Assembly: GCA_964651115.1 (NCBI GenBank)
Contig: CAZYXJ010000001.1
Location: forward strand, 213,077 to 277,076
DNA length: 64,000 nt
Direction of reading: 5' to 3'
Origin: an uncultured Candidatus Saccharibacteria bacterium
GTDB lineage: Bacteria; Patescibacteriota; Minisyncoccia; Phycocordibacterales; JACOZG01
The notes below the pieces were generated by a model. The model saw nothing but the letters and a program-made list of their open reading frames with translations. It was not told the DNA's origin and ran no database searches. Positions within the stretch are counted from its first letter, which is position 1, and every line of letters starts with the position of its first letter. This document shows, piece by piece, positions 1 through 12,155 of this stretch. The translations under genes were made by a program, and so were the position numbers.

Positions 1-168
1 ACTCCATTACTGCCGCTATCAAACTTCAGCCAACCCATATTAGGTGTCCAAGCCCAACCCTTAACCTCTTGAGTGGTTTGCGCAAAACCAATTCCCCACC
101 AACCAAAAAACAAAAGCACGGCGATCAGCCAGAAAGTTTTCATAGATGATTTAATTGTACACCCTTGC

Positions 169-1161
169 TTAGTCTTCTGCTTCGTCCTTATCCACAACCA
201 CCTGACGCGTACCCGCCGCGGTCTGCTTCAACGCTTCGATCAGTGGGTCTAACTCACCCGCTAAAACTTTTTCAATATTATGCCAAGACTCTTTTAAACG
301 ATGATCCGTAATCCGATCTTGAGCGAAATTATAGGTCCGGATCTTTTCGGAGCGATCGCCCGTACCAATCTGACTGCGACGCTCGCTCGAGAGCGCCGAG
401 GCGGCCGCTTCCGCCTCGGCGGCTTCGATCTTGCTTAACAAAATAGCCAAGGCCTTCTCTTTATTGCGCGCCTGACTCCGCTCACTTTGACAGCGCACCA
501 CTAAACCGGTGGGCTTATGCAAAATTCGAACCGCCGTTTCCACCTTGTTGACGTTTTGGCCGCCAGCGCCACCCGCTCGCGAAGTAATAATTTCCAACTG
601 GGATGGATCAATCGTCACCTTTTGCATCTCTCTAAAGGGCACGACGACCACCGACGCGGTGGAAGTGTGGATCCGACCCTGCTTTTCCGTCGCGGGTACG
701 CGCTGGACGCGATGGACGCCCGTCTCCCAACGCAATTCTTCATAGGCGCCTTCGCCAGAAATTTCGAACGAAGCTTCTTTGTAACCCCCGACTTCGTTTT
801 TCGATTCGTCAGACACGGTAAAGTCCCAGCCGCGACGCTCAGCGTAACGACGGTACATCTCGGCCAGTTCATAGGCAAACAAAGCCGACTCATCGCCACC
901 AGCACCGGCTCGCACCTCCAAAATTATTTTACGAGGTGAAGCCTGCTCGGCCGCGACCTCCTTGGTAACGATCTCCTCCATCTGTTGCCACAAGGTGGCG
1001 GCCAGGGCGTCGAGCGTCATTAACTCCTCGCGCGCCAAATCCGCCATCGAAGGATCGGCGGCGATTAAATTCTCGGTCTCCTGACGGCGAGCTAACACTC
1101 GATCATACTCGAGCGCCAAATACAGCGTCTTGGGATTAGTGCGAAATTGTTCGATAGACAT
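169..1161 (-). CDS. prfA: peptide chain release factor 1
   Basis: 330 aa; GGQ motif ([13 protein letters not shown]) and PAT tripeptide typical of RF1 rather than RF2 (SPF); adjacent to rpmE. Confidence 0.85.
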
Positions 1162-1401
1162 CTACTCCGCGCGCTTCGCGGTGGTAGTGGAAGGAGACTT
1201 GGCTCGCGCGCGGCGGGCCTTAAACTTCTCTACCCGACCAGCGGCGTCCAAAACCTTTTCCATGCCGGTATAAAAAGGATGGCAGGCACTGCAAATTTCC
1301 ACTTCCAGTTTTTCCCGGGTGGATCCAACGGTAAAGGTCGCGCCACAAGCGCAAGTCACCTTAGCCGCTGGGTAATATTGGGGGTGAATCTCTTTCTGCA
1401 T
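1162..1401 (-). CDS. rpmE: 50S ribosomal protein L31
   Basis: 79 aa, [10 protein letters not shown]-terminus, two CxxC pairs (zinc ribbon) as in L31. Confidence 0.85.
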
Positions 1402-1424
1402 AGTGTCGGGATTATAGCAGTGAT

Positions 1425-2759
1425 TTATAAATTTTGCAAAGGATTAATCATATTCTCCTGAATATCGGCCGCCTTGGTCATTACCTGATTGCCATAGAAG
1501 GTGTTGGCTGGAGCCCGGTCATCGCAAGGCCGGCCAGAATAATAGCGACAAGCCGCGTTACGCTCGGCCGTAAAACCGCCCGCTCCAGCACCCAAATCCG
1601 CCAAGTACAAAGAGGAGGCCATAAAAGCGTCGGCTGGCTCCCAGGGGTCGGCCGTCTTTTTACCTAAAGCGCTGGCGATCCTCGTTTTAAACAATTCCCA
1701 GGTCGAAGGGATAAATTGCGCTGGCCCCATGGCGCCACCCCAACCGCCGCCCCACGGACACGAGAGGGGCAGACCCTCCGGGCTAATTCCTAACTCACCG
1801 ACGATCCGCAAGAACGGCGCGTGGTCGCGAGTCGGCTTCATGATGGCTTGCCACTGCTTTTCCGGTGGATCGCCAGGACGATTACAGGTCCCGACGTTCT
1901 GGCCCAGGTTGGACTCTTGAGTCAGAATGGCCAGAACTAAAGCGGCCCGGACCCCCGTCTTTTCGGCGGCGGCCGTGGCATATTCCAAAGCCTTACCAAA
2001 CGGGATCGCCGCCGAGTCTCGCAGGGCAAAGAGCGCGGCCCTAATCTGAGCGGCGCGCTTTTGGCGTTCGGCTAAAATCGTCTTGTACGCCGCCTCTTGA
2101 GTCTTGTTAACGCTGAGCAAAACTTGCTTGTCTTTCTCTTTGGCTTGGATAGTTCGCTGTTCGGCCTCAATTAACTTCTGCGCGTCGAGCTCCTTATTTT
2201 TGCGTTCTTCGAGGGCCGCCTTCTCGCGCCGAGCATCCTCTTGGGCTCCGCGCATCTCGGTAAAAGCATCGTGAATTGAACGTTGCACGAAAGCAAAATC
2301 ATCTACGTCAGTAAAAAAATCAGACAACTGACTGTTGTCGAGCAAAATTTCGACAAAAGAAGCGTTGTCAAAGTCGCGGGTCTTACGCAATAACTCGCCG
2401 AGCGAACCCTGCTCCCGTTTAATTTTTTGGGCCAAAGTTTCGATCTTACCTTCGCGCGCGACAATATCGTCCGCCAAACGCGAGACCTGAACTTGCTTGG
2501 CCTTGATACTAGTCTGCGCTCGCTGGATCTGCGACTTAAGCAAATCAATTTCGCCTTGGACGGTAGCAGTATCGCGCTGTTTGGCTTGGAGCAACTTGGT
2601 CTGTTCGGCAATCGCCCGCTCCTCGGCCTCCAGCTCGGCCTGCAACCGCGCGCGACGCGCCTCAATCTCCTCCACACTCTGCGCGCCAACTGGCCGACTA
2701 ATCGCCACCGCGCCAGTTAGCGCCAACACCAACCCAAAAAAAATAATCCCCCGTCTCAT
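1425..2759 (-). CDS. secreted coiled-coil protein with C-terminal lytic transglycosylase-like domain
   Basis: ATG at 2759 gives the signal-like N-terminus [19 protein letters not shown]; long Q/E/K/R-rich coiled coil; C-terminal ES..G...[13 protein letters not shown] motif resembles MltB/family-3 lytic transglycosylases. The ORF-track N-terminal Arg-rich extension to 2945 overlaps rplY in another frame and was trimmed. Confidence 0.6.
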
Positions 2760-2802
2760 GTGGGGATTATTATAACAAATTTCTCTCGGCTGGTAACGAG
2801 GA

Positions 2803-3450
2803 TTAGGCAGCCGTGGCGGCCTCCTCGCCCTCCTCCACCTTCTTACCCTTCTTCTCAACCTCGATGGCCGAGAGATCAACTGGCGCCGTCTCAATTGGCT
2901 CATCCTTCGCGACAGCAATCGAAGCCACCACCTCCTCCGGGGCACTGAGAACCGTCACATCTTTGGGTACGCTCAAGTCCGAAACCAAAATTTGGCTGTC
3001 CAAAGAAACTAATTTAGAAATATCAACCTCAATATCGTGAGGAATGTTCATTGGCAAAACTTCTACTTCCAATTCGTAAAGCACCTTAACCAAAGTACCA
3101 CCGAGATCCTTAACGGCGGAGGCCACGCCCTCGAAGCGGAGGGGCACATTAACCTTAACCGTCTTGGTCTTATCGACAGCGTAGAGATCGGCGTGCAGAG
3201 GCTCGCCGCTCACGGGATGAACCATCACGTCATGGATCAAAACGTCGGCCTTAACCTCGCCGGCATCAATCGTTACCATACTCGACTCACCAGCCGTGGC
3301 GAGCAATTTTTTGAACTCCTTAGTATTAAGAAGAAGAGAGGTGGTCTCCTGCTTAGGACCATACAAAACCGCAGGCATTTGACCAGCTAATCGGACACTC
3401 TTGAGCTTTTTGCCGAAGACAGAACGCTTTTCGGCCATAATTTTTTGCAT
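2803..3450 (-). CDS. rplY: 50S ribosomal protein L25 / general stress protein Ctc
   Basis: 215 aa; L25/Ctc-like N-terminal beta-barrel region (PAVLYG...VNVPLRF) and acidic C-terminal tail; start may be M5. Confidence 0.7.
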   Translation of the reverse strand: MQKIMAEKRSVFGKKLKSVRLAGQMPAVLYGPKQETTSLLLNTKEFKKLLATAGESSMVTIDAGEVKADVLIHDVMVHPVSGEPLHADLYAVDKTKTVKVNVPLRFEGVASAVKDLGGTLVKVLYELEVEVLPMNIPHDIEVDISKLVSLDSQILVSDLSVPKDVTVLSAPEEVVASIAVAKDEPIETAPVDLSAIEVEKKGKKVEEGEEAATAA

Positions 3451-3497
3451 GACAGATAGTATAGCGAAAAGCGGCCAGATGTCAAAATCAGTGGACC

Positions 3498-4475
3498 TTA
3501 AGCGGCCGTCACCAAATTGGGCGGCGTCTGGCCCGCCAGCGCCGCCAAAATATTGTCGGCCGCCAAACGAGCCATGTCGTCTCGGGTCTCAAAAGTAGCG
3601 GAGGCAATGTGTGGCGTTAAAACGACGTTAGGTAAATCCTTCAACCCCGCCGCCAGAGTGGGCTCATTTTCATAAACATCCAAGCCCGCACCGGCGATCT
3701 GGCCAGAACGCAAGGCCTCCACCAGCGCGGCCTCGTCAATCACCGGACCACGAGCCGTATTTACGATTACCGCACTCGGCTTCATTAACGCCAGCCGCTC
3801 GCGATTAATCAAATGGCGCGTCTCGGGCGTCAGATTAACGTGGAGCGAAACGTAATCCGCCACCGTCAACACCTCCTCCACCGTAGACTTAAACTCAGCG
3901 CCAAATTCTTTCTCAAATTCTTCGTTCCGCTTAACGTCAAAGTAGACCACCTTCATGCCAAAACCGCGGGACGCAAAGTGAGCCAACTTAGAACCAATCC
4001 GACCGGCGCCGACAATGCCAAGCGTCCGGCCATAAAGATCTGGGGTCAAAAAAATCATTGGCGCCCAGCCGACATACTTGCCGTCGCGGACAAATTGATC
4101 CGCCTCGACGATCCGCCGCCCCACCGCCACCAGAAGAGCCAAGGCATGCTCAGCGACGCTCTGACTGGTCGAGGGCGCGGGCGTGTTGGTGATCATCACG
4201 CCACGCTTTTTGGCCTCAACCAGATCAACGTTATCAAAACCCACCGCGTAGTTAGCAAAAATCTTCGCTGTCGGGACGGCCTCAAAAACTTCGGCATCAA
4301 TCTTGTCGGTCAAGAGCGGTAAAACGGCGTCATACGGCTTAGCCCGAAGCGCGGTTAATAACTCCTCGCGCGAGAGAAGGCCATCCTTAGGGCTCACGTC
4401 CACCTCGTGCCCCTTCTCGCGCAACATCTGTTCTGCCAAATCCGGAATTTTCCGGGTAATGTAAATTTTTCCCAT
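3498..4475 (-). CDS. D-isomer-specific 2-hydroxyacid dehydrogenase (glycerate/hydroxypyruvate reductase-like)
   Basis: 325 aa; NAD-binding GxGxxG (GIVGAGRIGSKLA); catalytic-domain layout of the D-2-hydroxyacid dehydrogenase family. Confidence 0.75.
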   Translation of the reverse strand: MGKIYITRKIPDLAEQMLREKGHEVDVSPKDGLLSREELLTALRAKPYDAVLPLLTDKIDAEVFEAVPTAKIFANYAVGFDNVDLVEAKKRGVMITNTPAPSTSQSVAEHALALLVAVGRRIVEADQFVRDGKYVGWAPMIFLTPDLYGRTLGIVGAGRIGSKLAHFASRGFGMKVVYFDVKRNEEFEKEFGAEFKSTVEEVLTVADYVSLHVNLTPETRHLINRERLALMKPSAVIVNTARGPVIDEAALVEALRSGQIAGAGLDVYENEPTLAAGLKDLPNVVLTPHIASATFETRDDMARLAADNILAALAGQTPPNLVTAA

Positions 4476-4487
4476 TTATTAATTGTA

Positions 4488-5504
4488 TCATAAGGATTCA
4501 ATTTTTCTTCTAAGTTTCCAACCATTGCCGTGATCCAATAAACCCAAATATGATTGAACTGTCTCCGACTTAACTCCTGCTTTATTTATCCGTTTAAACA
4601 TTCGTCGTCTTGTCATAGTCCGCAGAACACGATGTTTTGAAAATTGGACCCACCCTAGAAAATCAACACCAGAGGAAACTCGCTCGAGAAGAATTTTGTT
4701 GGGATGAAACTCTAACTTCAGTTTCTCTTTTAAGAATTCGGCAATTTCGGGTGCGAGCTTGACTAGACGATCTTTATCGCGACCAACAATGACAAAATCG
4801 TCCGCGTAGCGAAGATAATGCCTCGCTTTCAAGCTATGCTTCATAAACTGATCGAGCTCGTTTAGATAAACATTGGCAAAAAGTTGGGAAGTAAGATTAC
4901 CGAGAGGCAGGCCCTGGCCGGGTACGCCCGAATTAAAACTGTAAATTATTTTCTCGATCAGCCAGATAATACCCTGGTCAGGAATCTTTTTCCTCAATAA
5001 ATCGATCAGTATTGCTCGATCGATGCTAGCAAAAAATTTGCGAATGTCACACTTCAAAACCCAAACCATTTTGGTGTTGTTTCGAGAAAGCTTGGCCGTA
5101 ATTAGGGCAAATTTTTTAATTGCTTTGTGAGTACCTTTTCCGTTGCGACAAGAATAGGAGTCAGAAATAAATCTTGGATGGAAAAACCAGTAAAGCCGGC
5201 GATAAACGGCTCGATGTAAAACCCGATCACGCACGGATGCCTTATGGATCACTCGCCGCTTGGGGTCGTTAATGATGAAAACTTTGTAAGCCGAATGATG
5301 GTATGTCTTAGCCACTAAATCCTCGTGAAGTGAAATAATGTTGGCCATCAGGTTTCGTTCAAATTCCTGCACGTCTTTTCGATTCCGTTTCCCTCTCACG
5401 AATTCCTGCCAGGCCGCGAGCAGATTAGCGAGCGAGACGATATTGTCATATTTTATGGTAGGTGCTATCTTGGCCGAAAATGCTACCGGTAAGCCCCCCC
5501 CCAA
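4488..5504 (-). CDS. diversity-generating retroelement (DGR) reverse transcriptase
   Basis: 338 aa; RT motifs including RYADDFVIV (YADD) and DGR-type motif-4 LGNLTSQ (group II intron RTs have QG...SP); no maturase/X domain; lies next to a TR/VR pair with adenine-specific mismatches. Apparent TTG start is followed immediately by a G9 run. Confidence 0.85.
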   Translation of the reverse strand: MGGGLPVAFSAKIAPTIKYDNIVSLANLLAAWQEFVRGKRNRKDVQEFERNLMANIISLHEDLVAKTYHHSAYKVFIINDPKRRVIHKASVRDRVLHRAVYRRLYWFFHPRFISDSYSCRNGKGTHKAIKKFALITAKLSRNNTKMVWVLKCDIRKFFASIDRAILIDLLRKKIPDQGIIWLIEKIIYSFNSGVPGQGLPLGNLTSQLFANVYLNELDQFMKHSLKARHYLRYADDFVIVGRDKDRLVKLAPEIAEFLKEKLKLEFHPNKILLERVSSGVDFLGWVQFSKHRVLRTMTRRRMFKRINKAGVKSETVQSYLGLLDHGNGWKLRRKIESL

Positions 5505-5513
5505 CCGAAGTTA

Positions 5514-5906
5514 TTGCCTCTTTTGCAAAAGGTGAAGATTGCATACTTATTGTGGTATGAATATTACCAAATTTTGCCAAAAACACATCGACACTCACTC
5601 GGTAAGAAAATTGATACGTTGTGGATCGAGATTATCGAAGCCATTGCGATTGCAAGCTATTTAGGCAAAGGAGAGAAACAACCCTGGGTGAGATTGGCAA
5701 TAAGGAAAACTGATACACTCAAGATATTGCTCTTGGTACTTTGGGAAACTAAATCACTGGATAATAAAAAATATATCGCCCTGTCTTTACCCCTGGAGGA
5801 AATTGGCAAAATGCTTGGCGGTTGGAATGGGCAAATTTTGAGACAATTACAACAAGAACAATTAAAGAAAAACTCTCCCACCAAAGCAGGAGAGAAAATG
5901 AAGTGA
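5514..5906 (+). CDS. Avd-like accessory variability determinant (four-helix-bundle / 23S rRNA IVS protein family)
   Basis: 130 aa basic helical protein; ...PKTHRHSLGKK...LSLPLEEIGKMLGGW parallels BPP-1 Avd (…PRKHGVAREM…VLIAEVGRILGSW). Its 3' end is 2 bp from the TR and its start is 9 bp from the RT start, but it is on the opposite strand. Confidence 0.55.
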   Translation: MPLLQKVKIAYLLWYEYYQILPKTHRHSLGKKIDTLWIEIIEAIAIASYLGKGEKQPWVRLAIRKTDTLKILLLVLWETKSLDNKKYIALSLPLEEIGKMLGGWNGQILRQLQQEQLKKNSPTKAGEKMK

Positions 5907-5907
5907 G

Positions 5908-6029
5908 TTGCGACGAAACGCAAACCAGTCATTGGAGTTACCGTAGTTCTCGAGCCAGTTGAGGTTCGCCTTGCGCCTCGAGTCGTTCCACCAAACGTTG
6001 CACGCCTGGCGATCGCCATCGAAGAAATA
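5908..6029 (-). repeat. DGR template repeat (TR)
   Basis: 122 bp matching 6408-6529 at exactly +500 bp. The 22 mismatches all fall where this copy has T on the plus strand (A on the minus/sense strand); 22 of 27 TR adenines are substituted and no non-adenine position differs. Confidence 0.85.
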
Positions 6030-6388
6030 GTGTAAGGTGTCATCCGAGTCACCATCTCTTGTCGCCAACACAGGACGATTCGAGATCGAATATTATTCGG
6101 CATCTATAATGCCCTAGCACTCTACACCAAGTAGCTTCATTTTTTATTGAAGGATCTGCGTAAATCCTCCGTCGGAAATCGTAATCGCCGACGCTCTCAA
6201 TTTACAGACACTGGTTTCAGTAGCGAGCAACCCTGATCGCCCACATATTCACCTACTCCCGTCTTTAATTTTAGCAAAGAAAAATCCCACACGCGAAGTG
6301 TAGGATTCCATTGTTTACGTTTTGGATTACGTTTGGCAAAAATTGCCGAAGAGCAAAATCCAAAGGATCTGAAAAATCTCCAAGGACC

Positions 6389-7048
6389 TTAGGCCTGAGG
6401 ACGAAGCTTGCGACGAAACGCAAACCAGTCACCGGAGCGACCGCAGACCTCGAGCCAGCAGAGGCGCGCCCCGCGCCCCGAGTCGCCCCACCAAACGCGG
6501 CACGCCAGGCGAACGCCAACGAAGAAACACTCCTTGGTGGCCACCACATACATCGGGTCTAATCCCAGTTCCCGATGAAGAGTGGGATAATGTTCGCCAA
6601 TAGCGAACACTTCTCGTGGGTCAGTGCGCTCGAGTCCGAACTGCTCCGCCCAAGCGATAGCCTTGCTCCAGTTGCCACCCCGTGGGAAGTTGAGAAGGAT
6701 GATTTCCTCCTCTTCTTCCACACCTTCTCCCGGCGGATACTGGTCGCCCACCTTCCGGACGTTGTAGTCCAAAGGAGTGTTGGGACCGGCGGCATTCAGC
6801 GCTTCCGACCACTTGCGTCCTTTGTTGAAGCGAACGCGGATCGTGTGGATGCGAGCGCCCGGTGGCGGGATAAGCGGTAAGCCAATGGTGATCGGTAGCC
6901 CAGCCTCGATTCCATCGAGAACACGACCCAGAGTTCCATCGTCAAGTGCCGTTTGCAGGCGGGCTCGACTCATCTTTTTGTCCCGTACCATTTGAACAAA
7001 CTGTCTTCCCTGACCATCGGTCGCGGTTACAACCTTTTCAGTGGTCAT
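6389..7048 (-). CDS. DGR variable (target) protein, small C-type-lectin-like target
   Basis: 219 aa; VR occupies the last ~40 codons, ending 17 bp before the stop; the C-terminal W/G/R-rich segment is consistent with a CLec/FGE-like ligand-binding fold (not verified); no obvious signal peptide. Confidence 0.7.
   Translation of the reverse strand: MTTEKVVTATDGQGRQFVQMVRDKKMSRARLQTALDDGTLGRVLDGIEAGLPITIGLPLIPPPGARIHTIRVRFNKGRKWSEALNAAGPNTPLDYNVRKVGDQYPPGEGVEEEEEIILLNFPRGGNWSKAIAWAEQFGLERTDPREVFAIGEHYPTLHRELGLDPMYVVATKECFFVGVRLACRVWWGDSGRGARLCWLEVCGRSGDWFAFRRKLRPQA
6408..6529 (-). repeat. DGR variable repeat (VR) at the 3' end of the target gene
   Basis: Counterpart of the TR. Encodes ...RVWWGDSGRGARLCWLEVCGRSGDWFAFRRK versus the TR-encoded NVWWNDSRRKANLNWLENYGNSNDWFAFRRN; TR AAC/AAT/AAA codons correspond to the variable residues. 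Confidence 0.85.
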
Positions 7049-7203
7049 AACTATACCTTTCTTAACATGCCCCCTTTAAGCCCCAGCCACAAGCTGAGAC
7101 CAGAAGCGGGCAAAATGCGTGTTTTACATCAAAGAACTACATTTATAATATACACTCATTTATGCCGAGTTGTCAAGCCGGCTGAATCTGCTAGAATATG
7201 GCT

Positions 7204-8067
7204 CTAAATGTGGCTAAAAAGTTTTAATTTTTGCTCAACGAGCTTGGTCATTGCCGCCAGGGCTGGCTTTAAGAATTTGCAAGGCGCAACCTCATCAGGA
7301 TTTTCTTGCAACGATAGTTTAAGGCCGTCGCGGTAAGCCACGCGCAGCTCGGTATTGATGTGGACAACGGCAACACCACCCTCGATCGCGCCACGAAAAT
7401 CGCTCTCGCTATTACCCGAGCCGCCATGCAGAACCAGAGGCACACCCGCCGCCGCCCGGATGGCGGCAATACGCGCCAGATCGAGCTTGGGATCAGGTCG
7501 GCCGCGCAACATCCCGTGGATGTTGCCGACGGCTGGCGCCAAAAGGTCAACGCCCGTGGCCACCACAAACTCGGCGGCCTGCTCGGGCTTAGTCAGATCG
7601 TCACCGAGCGCGGCGCCAGCCGGCACCTCGTCGAGCACCTTCGACGAGGTGCCAATATAACCCAGCTCGCCCTCCACCAGCACGTCCCGACCACTAGAAT
7701 GCGCGTACTCCACCACCTTACGAGCGGTCGCCACATTCTCCTCAAACGGTAATTGCGCGCCGTCAAAAATAACCGCGTCAAAACCAGCGTCAATGGCCTC
7801 GACTGCTCGCTCGTAAGAATAAGTATGGTCGGCATTAAGAAAAATCGGGTAGGCAAATTGTTCGCGCAGACTCTTAACCAACGTCGCGATCTGCCGAACG
7901 CCAATAAAGTCTCGCTCGCCCTCCGAAACGCCGATGATCACCGGCAGAGAGAGAGCGCGCGCGGCATTAAATACTGCCCAGACCGCATTAGAATCCGAAA
8001 TATTAAAATGCCCCACCGCCACCCGACGCTCCGCCGCCTCTAGAATGTATTCTCGTAACGTTTTCAT
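7204..8067 (-). CDS. fba: class II fructose-bisphosphate aldolase
   Basis: Class II FBA/tagatose-bisphosphate aldolase family motifs (HFNISD..., ADHTYS, metal-binding His). Start placed at the ATG (MKTLREYILEAA); the ORF-track upstream extension looks spurious. Confidence 0.75.
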   Translation of the reverse strand: MKTLREYILEAAERRVAVGHFNISDSNAVWAVFNAARALSLPVIIGVSEGERDFIGVRQIATLVKSLREQFAYPIFLNADHTYSYERAVEAIDAGFDAVIFDGAQLPFEENVATARKVVEYAHSSGRDVLVEGELGYIGTSSKVLDEVPAGAALGDDLTKPEQAAEFVVATGVDLLAPAVGNIHGMLRGRPDPKLDLARIAAIRAAAGVPLVLHGGSGNSESDFRGAIEGGVAVVHINTELRVAYRDGLKLSLQENPDEVAPCKFLKPALAAMTKLVEQKLKLFSHI

Positions 8068-8109
8068 GCCAAAAGTATACCACAGCCACTGCATGATATA
8101 CTGGAGGAC

Positions 8110-9108
8110 ATGGACACGACAGAACAATTTGACTTTATCGCCATCGGCGACATTACCACCGACGCTTTTATCCGAATTAAAGAGGCCGATATCCATTGCC
8201 AGGTCAACAAAGCGGATTGCCAGATCTGCATGCGCTTCGGCGACAAGATCCCCTATGAGTCCGTCACCGTCGTCCCGGCAGTAGGCAACTCGCCCAACGC
8301 CGCCACCAGCGCTGCTCGGCTTGGACTCAAGACCGCCCTCGTCACCAATCTAGGCGCGGATCGCGACGGCGATGAGGCGCTCGCCGAGCTAACCAAAAAC
8401 GGCATCAACGCCACCTTCGTCGCTCGCCACGCCGACAAAAAAACTAATTACCACTACGTCCTGTGGTATCACGACGACCGCACCATCCTCATCAAACACG
8501 AAGAGTATCCTTACCGCTTACCCGAGATCGGCACGCCCCGCTGGATCTATCTCAGCTCGCTGGGTGAAAATTCTCTGCCCTTCCAACACGAGATCGCTGA
8601 TTATGTGAAAAAAAATCCCTTAATCAAACTCGCCTTCCAGCCGGGCACTTTCCAGATTAAAAATAGCCGTGAGCTGGCCGACGTCTATGCCGTGACGGAA
8701 ATCTTTTTCTGTAACGTTGAGGAGGCCAAACGCATTCTCGGCACCACGGCAGGCGAAATAAAAGAGCTTCTCACTGGTCTCGCCGCCCTCGGCCCCAAGA
8801 TCGTGATCATTACTGATGGCGCGCGCGGCGCTTATGCCTACTCGGCCGAAACGGGCGCCTGGTTTATGCCACCTTATCCTGATCCCAAACCACCCCTAGA
8901 GCGCACTGGCGCCGGGGACTCTTTTGCCTCAACCGTGACGGCCGCTCTCGCGCTTGGCAAAACTCTGCCCGAAGCCCTAGCGTGGGGACCAATCAACTCG
9001 ATGTCGGTTGTCCAACACGTCGGCGCGCAAGCCGGCCTCCTGCCTCGATCGGAATTGGAACGCTACTTAGGCCAAGCGCCGACAGATTACACCGCCCGAC
9101 CGCTGTAA
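8110..9108 (+). CDS. PfkB-family carbohydrate kinase (ribokinase-like)
   Basis: 332 aa; N-terminal FIAIGDITTD motif and C-terminal GAGDSFA signature of the PfkB family; TATACT -10 and GGAGGA RBS immediately upstream. Confidence 0.75.
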   Translation: MDTTEQFDFIAIGDITTDAFIRIKEADIHCQVNKADCQICMRFGDKIPYESVTVVPAVGNSPNAATSAARLGLKTALVTNLGADRDGDEALAELTKNGINATFVARHADKKTNYHYVLWYHDDRTILIKHEEYPYRLPEIGTPRWIYLSSLGENSLPFQHEIADYVKKNPLIKLAFQPGTFQIKNSRELADVYAVTEIFFCNVEEAKRILGTTAGEIKELLTGLAALGPKIVIITDGARGAYAYSAETGAWFMPPYPDPKPPLERTGAGDSFASTVTAALALGKTLPEALAWGPINSMSVVQHVGAQAGLLPRSELERYLGQAPTDYTARPL

Positions 9109-9121
9109 AAAATTTGGCATT

Positions 9122-9154
9122 AAAAAACCCGTCGCTCCCAAGCGACGGGTTTTG
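9122..9154. terminator. bidirectional rho-independent terminator
   Basis: aaaaaa-cccgtcgc-tcccaa-gcgacggg-tttt hairpin downstream of the PfkB kinase gene. Confidence 0.5.
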
Positions 9155-9234
9155 GGTTGGCGGAAGAGTGCTTCTTTCCCAACCGCCATTTCTTCTCCGG
9201 AAAGCACCTACAACGAGACGATCAGGACACCACT

Positions 9235-9660
9235 ATGTCCATCAACCTGCAAGAGACGGATCACCTCCCCCAAATCCAAAACCTCCATGACCAGCAAACC
9301 GTCGGGTTTGAACCTGACGCGCAAACCCTGCCCCGACCGATCAGTCACCCGGAGAATGTCGCAGAACGTTACTCCCGCGAACACCTCCGGAAACTGAACT
9401 CGGCACTGATGGAAATCCTCCTCGGTCGCCAGCCGGCAACCGAAGGGCTGACACATGGATTGGCCCCATTCTCCCAGACAGTGGCCCACATCAACTTGCC
9501 CATACACGCACACTTGGTAGACGCAAGTCGGTGCCAGAACGCTCCCACTCATACAGGTCTCCGTTCCTGTTACCAAAGAACAATCGCCTTACCAAAGAAC
9601 AATCGCCAGTCGACCGCCGACTGGCGCAAAAAGGAGAATAGCACACTCTCCCATCATTGA
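9235..9660 (+). CDS. hypothetical protein (weak)
   Basis: ORF in an otherwise unassigned 0.5-kb interval; no recognisable domain; contains a perfect 19-bp tandem duplication at 9570-9607; coding status uncertain. Confidence 0.2.
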   Translation: MSINLQETDHLPQIQNLHDQQTVGFEPDAQTLPRPISHPENVAERYSREHLRKLNSALMEILLGRQPATEGLTHGLAPFSQTVAHINLPIHAHLVDASRCQNAPTHTGLRSCYQRTIALPKNNRQSTADWRKKENSTLSHH

Positions 9661-9671
9661 CAAACTGTGGA

Positions 9672-10670
9672 TTACTGTCGCTTGCGAGCAATCGCCCGGC
9701 CGACCGCGGCCTTAATACTGCCCACGCCTAAACCATAATGATTAAGCAGTTCGTCGGGCGTACCAGACTGACCAAATTGATCATCAATCCCCACCCGGAC
9801 CAGCGGCACCGGGCATTGTTCGCCCAAAACCTCCGCCACCGCGCCACCCAAGCCGCCCGCGCGCTGATGCTCTTCCACCGTGATCACGGCGCCAGCGCCA
9901 GCTGCCCAGACCACCGCCTCCGTATCCAGGGGCTTAATCGTATGCATATTAATCACCGCTACTTCCGTCCCCGCCTCAGCCAGTTCCGCCGCGGCCGTCA
10001 AAGCAGAATAGACCATCTGACCACAGGCAATAATCGTTACTTGCGGCTTTTCTGGTTGGCGGAGCACATTGGCCCGACCAATTAAAAAGGGTGACTCCTC
10101 CGTTGTCACCACCGGCGACTTTTCGCGCGCGAGACGCAGATAAGCGGGGCCAACATAAGACGCCAGCGCCAGCGTCGCCTTGCGCGCCTCAATCGCGTCG
10201 GCCGGTACCACCACCGTCATCCGGGGTACGACACGCATGATCGCAATATCTTCGATCGCCTGATGCGTCCCACCATCTGGCCCCACGGAAACGCCAGCAT
10301 GCGAACCAACCACCTTAACGTTGCGATCGTTGTAACAAATCGTCGTCCGAATTTGTTCCCAATTACGACCAGGACTAAACATCGCGTACGAAGTTAAAAA
10401 AGGGATCTTGCCCATCGCCGCCATGCCGCTGGCGACGCTCGCCAAGTTCTGCTCCGCCACGCCAATCTCCACGTAACGCTCGGGAAATTTGTTTTTAAAT
10501 AAATGCATCTGCGTTGACTCTACTAAGTCGGCACACAAACCAACCACTTCGGCATTGGCCTCCGCGGCGGCGAGCAACCCTTCACCAAAGCCCTTGCGAA
10601 TCGGCACTCGCTCCACGTCGAGCTTAAAAAGTTTGGGATTTAATTTTTGACCTTCAACTAAATTATTCAT
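9672..10670 (-). CDS. transketolase, C-terminal (pyrimidine-binding) subunit
   Basis: Pyrimidine-binding plus C-terminal domains of a split transketolase; ATG at 10670 overlaps the stop of the upstream N-terminal subunit gene by 8 nt. Confidence 0.8.
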   Translation of the reverse strand: MNNLVEGQKLNPKLFKLDVERVPIRKGFGEGLLAAAEANAEVVGLCADLVESTQMHLFKNKFPERYVEIGVAEQNLASVASGMAAMGKIPFLTSYAMFSPGRNWEQIRTTICYNDRNVKVVGSHAGVSVGPDGGTHQAIEDIAIMRVVPRMTVVVPADAIEARKATLALASYVGPAYLRLAREKSPVVTTEESPFLIGRANVLRQPEKPQVTIIACGQMVYSALTAAAELAEAGTEVAVINMHTIKPLDTEAVVWAAGAGAVITVEEHQRAGGLGGAVAEVLGEQCPVPLVRVGIDDQFGQSGTPDELLNHYGLGVGSIKAAVGRAIARKRQ

Positions 10671-11529
10671 GTTCGCCTTTGATCCGACCACTTAGACTGC
10701 GTAATTCTTTTAACGCCACCACTCCTTCCTCAGCGTTGGGCGGCTTGCCGTGCCACTCAAACTGTCGCTCAAACTGCGGTACGCCCTTAGACGGAATCGT
10801 GTGCGCGATAATGCAACTCGGCCGATTGAAAACCGCCTTGGCATGACCCACCGCTTCGGCAATTGATTCGAAGTTATGACCGTCAATATCTTGAACGTGC
10901 CAACCAAAGCTCTCCCACTTCTCCTTAAGCGGCTCCAGCGGCATCACCGTCTCAGTAAAGCCGTCGATCTGGATATTGTTGCGGTCAACGATCACAATTA
11001 AATTATGCAAAGCCTCGCGGCCGGCGAGCATCGCCGCCTCCCAGATCTGGCCGCAATTAAGTTCACCGTCGCCCGTGAGACAGTAGAAAAAGCGGTCACT
11101 CCGCCGGCCGCGATCCAGCCGGTCAGCCAAGGCCATCCCCACGGCCTGCGAGAGGCCCGAGCCCAGCGGGCCGGAGCTCGTCTCGAGCGCCGGGAGAAAC
11201 TCCCGGTGGGGATGGCCTTGCAAACGCGAACCAAACTTACGCAAAGTGACCAATTCCGAAACCGGAAAGTAACCAGCGTGGGCCATCGTCGCGTAAAGCA
11301 CTGGCGCGATGTGACCATTAGACAAAATCAAGCGATCGCGATCCTCCCAACGCGGATCCTCGGGCCGATGCTTTAACAAATGAAAATAAAGAGCGGTAAA
11401 AATGTCGGTCATGCCCAGCGGTCCTGCCGTGTGGCCAGAACCAGCCGCCAAAAGCATCTCAATAATCGACTGGCGGATCTGCTGCGCCTGCCGTTCTAAA
11501 AATTTTACTTTTTCGTCGTAAAGGATCAC
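10663..11529 (-). CDS. transketolase, N-terminal (TPP-binding) subunit
   Basis: 288 aa; TPP-binding region (GHTAGPLGMTDIF...SNGH, GDGELNCGQIWEA); ATGA overlap with the upstream rpe stop. Confidence 0.8.
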   Translation of the reverse strand: MILYDEKVKFLERQAQQIRQSIIEMLLAAGSGHTAGPLGMTDIFTALYFHLLKHRPEDPRWEDRDRLILSNGHIAPVLYATMAHAGYFPVSELVTLRKFGSRLQGHPHREFLPALETSSGPLGSGLSQAVGMALADRLDRGRRSDRFFYCLTGDGELNCGQIWEAAMLAGREALHNLIVIVDRNNIQIDGFTETVMPLEPLKEKWESFGWHVQDIDGHNFESIAEAVGHAKAVFNRPSCIIAHTIPSKGVPQFERQFEWHGKPPNAEEGVVALKELRSLSGRIKGEHE

Positions 11530-12155
11530 AAATTTTGAAATTGCTTAATCGTCGCCGCCACATCCTCGCTCTCCCACAAGGCCGAACCCACCACCAAGCG
11601 ATCAGCACCAGCCGCTAAGAGCGCCGGGGCATTAGCCAACGTCACGCCACCGTCAATAGAAATTGTAACATCCGGAAATTGCTGTCGCAAAGATTTAATT
11701 TTTTCTTCAATCCCCGCCACCAGCGGCTGACCATGCTGACCAATGGCGGCGATACTCATCAACTGCACCAATTTAAGATTTTCGCGATAGGCTTCTAAAA
11801 CACTAAGCGACGTTGGCCACAACAGAGCTAATCCCAGCTGATTGGGGCGACCGGCGACGGCACCAAAAATCTGTCGCAGTCGATCGCTCGCTTCGTAGTG
11901 GACGATCAAACGATCGGCCCCCGCCAACCAACCAGCCAACTCTGTCTCGGGCTCCTCAATCATCAGATGGACCTCGATCTTAACCTTGCCAGGCACCAGG
12001 GCCAGATCGTCGGCGGTGCCCCACGTCTCCGGACTGGCAAAATGTCCGTCCGTCACATCAATTTGCACCCAATCAACCAAACCTTCGACTTGCGCGATCT
12101 TAGAAGTGATCTCTCGAAAATTTTTACCAATGATTGCCGGAATGATTTGCGCCAT
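11526..12155 (-). CDS. rpe: ribulose-phosphate 3-epimerase
   Basis: RPE-like TIM-barrel motifs (IIPAII..., VQIDVTDGHF, ISIDGGV). Start trimmed to the ATG at 12155, which is adjacent to the rpiB stop. Confidence 0.7.
   Translation of the reverse strand: MAQIIPAIIGKNFREITSKIAQVEGLVDWVQIDVTDGHFASPETWGTADDLALVPGKVKIEVHLMIEEPETELAGWLAGADRLIVHYEASDRLRQIFGAVAGRPNQLGLALLWPTSLSVLEAYRENLKLVQLMSIAAIGQHGQPLVAGIEEKIKSLRQQFPDVTISIDGGVTLANAPALLAAGADRLVVGSALWESEDVAATIKQFQNL

Follow-up and report, generated by a model that had tools for sequence, protein, structure and literature searches.

The window (the whole 64-kb stretch of DNA analysed here) carries a diversity-generating retroelement (DGR) with the following genes and repeats:

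4488..5504, minus strand: RT ORF, 338 aa as called, with an uncertain start
5514..5906, plus strand: avd ORF as called, 130 aa, between TR and RT
5657..6103, minus strand: 148-aa ORF overlapping avd, the terminator and TR, with no family match
5908..6029, minus strand: template repeat (TR), located by TR/VR alignment
6529..6408, minus strand: VR, encoding the C-terminal ~40 residues of the target protein
6389..7048, minus strand: DGR target gene, 219 aa, with VR near its 3' end

The locus is a DGR: the differences between TR and VR are at adenines only, and the RT has the [ILV]GxxxSQ and YxDD motifs. The two repeats are offset by 500 nt and have 23 mismatches within the repeat, all of which (23/23) are changes from an adenine in TR to another base in VR. 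The RT ORF matches RVT_1 with an E value of 9.8e-24, and LGNLTSQ and YADD are visible in its translation. No Pfam or NCBIfam family was found for the 219-aa target protein in profile searches. The 148-aa minus-strand ORF was considered as a gene and rejected: it has no family match and crosses both TR and the terminator described below, and is most likely spurious.

The initial annotation described the ORF at 5514..5906 (+) as an Avd-like gene of 130 aa, and this identification is confirmed: it is a real gene of the Avd family of four-helix bundles. The protein matches Pfam bAvd (PF22296; E 1.6e-9, 38.6 bits) and NCBIfam DivGenRetAVD (NF033474; E 1.6e-14, 54 bits) end to end, and both matches are significant, though they fall below the curated cut-offs (a gathering score of 40 bits and an equivalog cut-off of 80 bits, respectively). 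The database holds 2,389 homologs at E<=1e-3; among the 120 homologs listed, identity is 62-99%, all have a precomputed PF22296 match and, where named, the source is Patescibacteria. An AF2 model built on 43 homologs (pLDDT 91) folds into four helices (residues 2-119), after which residues 120-130 form a disordered tail. Its top Foldseek match is the Avd of BPP-1 (4dwl_C, TM 0.76/0.89, rmsd 1.5 A); next come Avd chains from RNP structures of DGRs, 8ub7, 8ubb and 8ube. In the PDB, Avd was recovered by this fold search alone: sequence searches with the protein or with a 43-sequence profile found none. Sequence identity to BPP-1 Avd is only ~15%. Codon-position information from 33 non-redundant relatives has the pattern of a coding sequence, with positions 1 and 2 conserved and position 3 free. 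By likeness to BPP-1, this Avd would be a cofactor of the RT.

The avd stop codon (TGA, 5904-5906) is separated by 1 nt from the last base of TR (5908), and the TTG called as the start of avd and the one called for the RT ORF are 9 nt apart. The initial annotation was right about the positions and spacings of this gene, with its stop beside TR and its start 9 bp from that of RT, the 9 bp being a figure of the ORF caller.

The cassette was compared with 80 related loci from species-representative genomes (L001-L080), making 81 with the window. These 80 loci are from Patescibacteria-type MAGs, except for a few whose record titles name other taxa. RT is directly upstream of avd and divergent from it in all 75 loci that retain RT (75/75). 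A minus-strand TR was detected just past the avd stop codon (typically ~7 nt beyond it) in ~69/81 loci, with VR 450-500 nt further on from TR in the same loci. This gene order is identical to that of the B3 DGRs of Wu, Gingery, Abebe et al. (2018, NAR 46:11; PMC5758913), defined in that paper as TR-(avd)-RT and said there to account for 90% of CPR DGRs; the same paper points out that DGR parts on different strands require more than one transcription unit. The reverse-strand avd is therefore the published, clade-typical B3 layout, which is already known and needs no new explanation. The avd gene does lie opposite to TR and RT, convergent with the first and divergent from the second, as first described; it is the reading of this arrangement as unusual that falls away.

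The setting of the cassette seems to be chromosomal and not obviously phage, judging by the sequence around it. Within positions 1-12000 of the window, the ORF translations neighbouring the cassette are of housekeeping type (prfA-like, L31, L25, a dehydrogenase, an aldolase and a transketolase-like protein). A further cassette, that of L085, adjoins L11, NusG and SecE. Ribosomal protein genes near CPR DGRs are also remarked on by Wu et al. (2018; PMC5758913).

The region between the target gene and avd contains a series of minus-strand signals and RNA structures:

6276..6309, minus strand: terminator-like GC hairpin and T-run downstream of the target gene, found by terminator scan
6268..6276, minus strand: predicted extended -10 promoter TGCTAAAAT for a TR RNA, of the form TGnTAnnnT
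6030..6260, minus strand: structured 5' domain of the TR RNA, ~230 nt, defined by covariation
within 6030..6260, minus strand: helices H1 and H2 of the 5' domain
6153..6135, minus strand: A-rich hairpin of the 5' domain
6134..6127, minus strand: conserved CTACTTGG motif of the 5' domain, with TAC-TTGG invariant in the aligned loci
6127..6116 with 6041..6030, minus strand: P1
6113..6099, minus strand: P2 (P3 is also present)
5895..5907, minus strand: linker between TR and terminator, CTCACTTCATTTT in the window and (GCAA)CTCTCTTCATTT in the family consensus
5864..5894, minus strand: intrinsic-terminator-like hairpin, CTCTCCTGC/GTGGGAGAG at 5894..5873, then TTTTTCTTT

Because a promoter-like element, a structured 5' domain and a terminator-like hairpin flank it, TR appears to sit in a free-standing RNA gene of ~400 nt (~6260..5864, minus strand) with promoter-like and terminator-like signals of its own, the coordinates being the predicted ends of the transcript. 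The promoters and the terminator discussed here are read from sequence, and the promoter rules for CPR bacteria are not established. The spacer between VR and TR, with a median length of 351 nt, shows nucleotide conservation throughout the family, and the TGnTAnnnT element is found at a fixed distance of 11-12 nt before a conserved motif in 44/66 loci. RNAalifold predicts 53 pairs in the 5' domain, 41 of them with double-sided changes, and Rfam holds no family that matches the domain (scan of 5400-6500 at E<=1). In the three helices proximal to TR, 97.6% of cells are paired, as against 82.5% in shuffles and 29-54% with slid partners, and double-sided cells number 215 where 61 are expected. The 3' strand of P1 ends at 6030, directly beside TR. 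One guess is that the TAC-TTGG motif and the loop of the A-rich hairpin are priming or protein-binding sites.

The hairpin at 5894..5873 and the following TTTTTCTTT were detected by terminator scan in the window, and a hairpin followed by TTTTGTTTT is present after TR in essentially every related locus. The 9-bp stem is maintained across 54 sequences, and double-sided compensatory changes are seen at 7 of the 11 predicted pairs (the 9-bp stem and two outer pairs). There are more G-U than C-A cells (59 vs 13), which assigns the structure to the minus-strand RNA. The avd stop codon lies past the hairpin in most loci and within the hairpin loop in others; in the window, the linker includes the reverse complement of this codon. 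By eye, base pairing looks feasible between AACTCTC of the linker and the GAGAGTT half of the stem in the terminator, and could be an antiterminator-like alternative or a fold-back.

The overlap between avd and the minus-strand terminator is limited to the last ~36 nt (~12 codons) of the gene. Third codon positions of avd are free over codons 1-109 and unusually conserved in codons 110-121 (KQNSPAKAGEK and the stop) and the next ~10 nt. Since a conserved hairpin and U-run overlap the 3' end of the gene, the Avd tail seems to be a side effect of avd being read across the terminator of a convergent RNA gene.

These observations bear on two suggestions in the initial annotation about the minus strand of avd. 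In BPP-1, the RNA for cDNA synthesis (Sp; Rfam RT-10) lies downstream of TR and is the RNA of the TR-RT spacer; Avd binds to this noncoding segment, on which processive cDNA synthesis depends. By that precedent, the whole ~400-bp TR-RT spacer of the window might be avd coding sequence on one strand and structured DGR RNA, equivalent to Sp, on the other, and a conserved hairpin is indeed present on the minus strand of the last ~36 nt of avd. Among 33 non-redundant loci, however, the coding sequence of avd is conserved and an antisense structure over codons 1-109 is not: third positions are free there, and the antisense strand has 0 conserved pairs by RNAalifold. A BPP-1-type structured RNA was not found between TR and RT on the TR strand of the window; a scan of 5400-6500 against Rfam, which includes the RT-n motifs and RT-10/Sp among them, gave no match at E<=1, and the structured RNA is 5' of TR instead. 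Double duty as coding sequence and RNA is thus retained for the terminator at the end of avd and dropped for the remainder of the gene, the structured RNA being in the VR-TR spacer, and an Sp equivalent spanning the whole TR-RT spacer is very improbable indeed. The second suggestion, a TR-RT transcript running antisense through avd, is at odds with the hairpin and U-run terminator that follows TR in essentially every locus. A weaker form of it would have RT translated from terminator read-through, with a fraction of TR transcripts extending as TR-antisense-avd-RT. Terminators are seldom 100% efficient, and no convincing separate RT promoter was found among the loci examined (a -10-like hexamer is present in 24/47), but the hairpin and U-run are strongly conserved and the minus strand from the terminator to RT has no conservation beyond that of avd coding; we regard such read-through as quite unlikely. 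The ~230-nt 5' domain would, on the reading that we prefer, stand in for the downstream Sp RNA of BPP-1.

As avd is convergent with TR and divergent from RT, its expression signals must lie inside neighbouring features, and the junction with RT contains the following elements:

5443..5471, plus strand: promoter-like site for avd in the RT 5' coding region (TTGTCA, 17 nt, TG-C-TATCTT)
5455-5457 and 5480-5482, plus strand: upstream ATGs reading into the C-run
5494..5502, no strand assigned: C9 tract (G9 on the RT strand), between or within the 5' ends of avd and RT, a candidate slipped-strand switch

A simple-sequence repeat is a regular feature of this junction. A tract of C6-C13 (mode C10) is present in 62/78 loci, and nine loci have other repeats: (CAAT)7, (ACGA)9, (CAAC)7, (GCCA)10, (CAGC)14, (GA)6, (GA)10, (CA)8 and (AATCAGC)3. 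A repeat of either type therefore occupies the same site in 71/78 loci, the tract being lost in ~7. The end of the tract is 4-23 nt (mostly 7-8) upstream of the first codon of the conserved LP[LV]LQK. In 575 kb of related loci, 56/58 of the G/C runs of at least 8 are at the avd-RT junction, and C9 at 5494..5502 is the sole such run in the 64-kb window. Direct signs that the tract changes in length are few: only one near-identical pair differs, with C9 in L030 and L031 vs C8 in L034 and identical flanks, and to this can be added one contig start and one scaffold gap at the repeat (L066 and L068, below). No variation in tract length was seen in the lineage of the window, where Logan contig L081 (100% identical) also has C9; three contigs with an identical P0005 came from an exact-protein look-up and are hence biased towards the same frame, and a gapped pattern built on the flanks of the window tract, scanned against metagenomes, returned a single contig, already known. 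The tract is probably within the true 5' end of avd, to judge from the reading frames described below, and it may act as an ON/OFF switch of Avd and possibly of RT too.

The start codons of both genes are in doubt. The first codon of LP[LV]LQK is TTG in 29/81 loci (80 and the window) and TTA in 22, with CTN or ATA at most of the remaining first codons, so that translation could not generally start there. Upstream, within the first RT codons, TGnTAnnnT occurs exactly 7 nt before a plus-strand ATG in 42/67 loci; in the window, the -10 ends 8 nt before ATG 5480. This ATG is typically 37 nt from the tract. The -10 and the ATG are also constrained by RT coding (His8, Ile-Ile), and their presence is not independent evidence for a promoter, with the exception of a codon bias: the G of the TG is the third base of an RT Ile codon, which is ATC in 31/38 cases, whereas ATC makes up 29% of the Ile codons of these RT genes overall.

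Of the two upstream ATGs in the window, ATG 5455 would share the avd frame if the tract were C10, and ATG 5480 if it were C8 or C11. With the C9 that is present, neither is in frame, leaving TTG 5514 alone for avd, and this codon, at the first conserved position, could be a repeat-independent start in the window. Across the family, the upstream ATG is in frame with avd in 7/7 repeat-less loci (which represent two or three independent lineages), in 6/9 loci with other repeats and in 17/58 poly-C loci, the last being the chance expectation, which fits an unselected switch and an irrelevant ATG equally. A canonical start codon is absent in 21/49 out-of-frame (OFF-state) loci. The Avd called in L082 is 141 aa in length, begins MQLVTPPLPKLLPLLQ and reads through C9.

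The RT of the window lacks the ATG used by its relatives (L082, L086), and its sole in-frame start is TTG 5504. This TTG directly precedes G9, and the tract would then fall inside the window RT reading frame. Given the scarcity of TTG at the first LP[LV]LQK codon and the missing RT ATG, the 9-bp spacing between the starts of avd and RT is a product of ORF calling and not established biology. A leaderless RT promoter spaced by the poly-G run was also considered; a -10-like hexamer precedes the RT ATG in 24/47 loci, and this candidate is kept as a possibility only.

Two other accounts of the junction have to be weighed. The initial annotation proposed overlapping divergent promoters, with antisense interference possible; a promoter embedded in the neighbouring gene is supported for avd, whose predicted -10 is within RT codons with a biased ATC, and the antisense TR-RT transcript is not. 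Taken further, the ~9-bp gap might hold back-to-back, overlapping promoters for avd and RT, with antisense or transcriptional interference as the regulatory point. The 5' ends of the two genes abut or overlap in all loci and the avd promoter-like element is inside RT coding sequence, as such an arrangement would have it, but the conserved terminator after TR speaks against a long antisense transcript over avd. The junction, moreover, conserves a repeat of variable kind and not a fixed promoter sequence, and tetranucleotide tracts of 28-56 nt are too long for a single promoter spacer. We find this account doubtful.

It also seems unlikely to us that avd starts at or near the first LP[LV]LQK codon (TTG 5514), the repeat being untranslated and either tuning avd/RT transcription or having no switching role. 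The Avd HMM begins at that residue, and TTG is there in the 29/81 loci mentioned above; about half of the loci, however, have TTA, CTA, CTC, CTT or ATA, none of which is a start, no Shine-Dalgarno-like sequence was found upstream of the conserved codon, and all repeat-less loci retain an upstream ATG in frame. As for a role in transcription, the tract and its flank come to ~17-18 nt in the commonest poly-C loci, similar to a -35/-10 spacer, and in 13 loci the G-run is directly adjoined by a TANNNT hexamer that lies 7 nt before the RT ATG, yet the long tetranucleotide tracts do not fit a spacer.

We consider it likely that this is a Patescibacteria DGR of the B3 type made up of separate units, in which translation of avd starts upstream of the tract and the length of the tract may decide whether Avd is made. 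The target gene would be a transcription unit with its own terminator. The TR RNA (~400 nt, minus strand) would run from its extended -10 through the ~230-nt structured 5' domain, TR and the short linker to the intrinsic terminator. The plus-strand avd would be convergent with this RNA gene, its last ~12 codons being the antisense of the terminator, and the minus-strand RT would be divergent from avd, with the avd promoter inside the first RT codons. In most relatives, a leaderless avd mRNA would start at the ATG upstream of the hypermutable repeat (mostly poly-C); the repeat would then be inside the avd reading frame, and its length would set avd ON or OFF. A broader proposal, that retrohoming of CPR DGRs is gated by a slipped-strand avd switch and that the RNA scaffold has moved to the ~230-nt domain 5' of TR, is more tentative, and we offer it as a real possibility that we would not call probable.

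The cassette can be compared with the BPP-1 DGR (mtd-avd-TR-brt; structures 4DWL and 8UB7/8UBB/8UBE). The two share the Avd fold (TM 0.76/0.89), an RT with [ILV]GxxxSQ and YxDD, adenine-specific TR-VR differences, and a target protein that has its VR at the C-terminus. All parts of the BPP-1 element are co-directional, whereas avd is inverted in the window. The RNA also differs: here TR is followed only by a ~45-nt linker and terminator, and the conserved structured domain of ~230 nt comes before it. The mechanism of DGRs is known almost only from BPP-1, in which the RNA that recruits Avd and RT is downstream of TR and all parts are co-transcribed. DGRs of CPR bacteria occur in great numbers in genomes from groundwater and elsewhere, and their organisation appears to differ, with a stand-alone TR RNA gene, a large conserved 5' domain and an avd that is convergent through the terminator. 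If the RNA scaffold has indeed moved 5' of TR, the geometry of the RNP or the mode of priming would be unlike that of BPP-1.

The junction repeat has its closest parallel in contingency loci, such as those with poly-G/C and tetranucleotide tracts in Neisseria, Haemophilus and Campylobacter. Both have a homopolymer or a repeat of 2-7 nt at the 5' end of an ORF or in its promoter, with the type of repeat varying and its position conserved, and in both, different loci carry frame-shifting lengths. They differ in that contingency loci control surface structures or restriction systems, and the gene at issue here is that of a cofactor of a mutagenic retroelement; the host, too, is an uncultivated CPR bacterium, in which switching at the junction tract is a prediction. 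If the proposal is right, the repeat in the avd 5' end and RT upstream region would turn Avd ON and OFF heritably and reversibly, placing a hypermutation machine under stochastic phase control. A conserved hypermutable tract between avd and RT is a candidate for the control by which cells might restrain a mutagenic retroelement.

The junction repeat appears to be undescribed so far. Full-text searches turned up no relevant literature on DGRs in connection with homopolymers, with phase variation or with avd of Patescibacteria, and the repeat, the terminator overlapped by avd and the structured 5' RNA are not mentioned in the available excerpts of Wu et al. (2018; PMC5758913) or in the other full text searched, where the search leaves room for an earlier report.

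A few loci are broken or rearranged near the repeat. L040 and L049 have avd, the tract and TR without RT upstream; contig L066 begins inside the poly-C run and shares an identical right flank with L079, which comes from the same bin; and in L068 a scaffold gap (N) abuts (CAGC)14. Together, L040/L049, L066/L079 and L068 suggest rearrangement or assembly breaks at the repeat.
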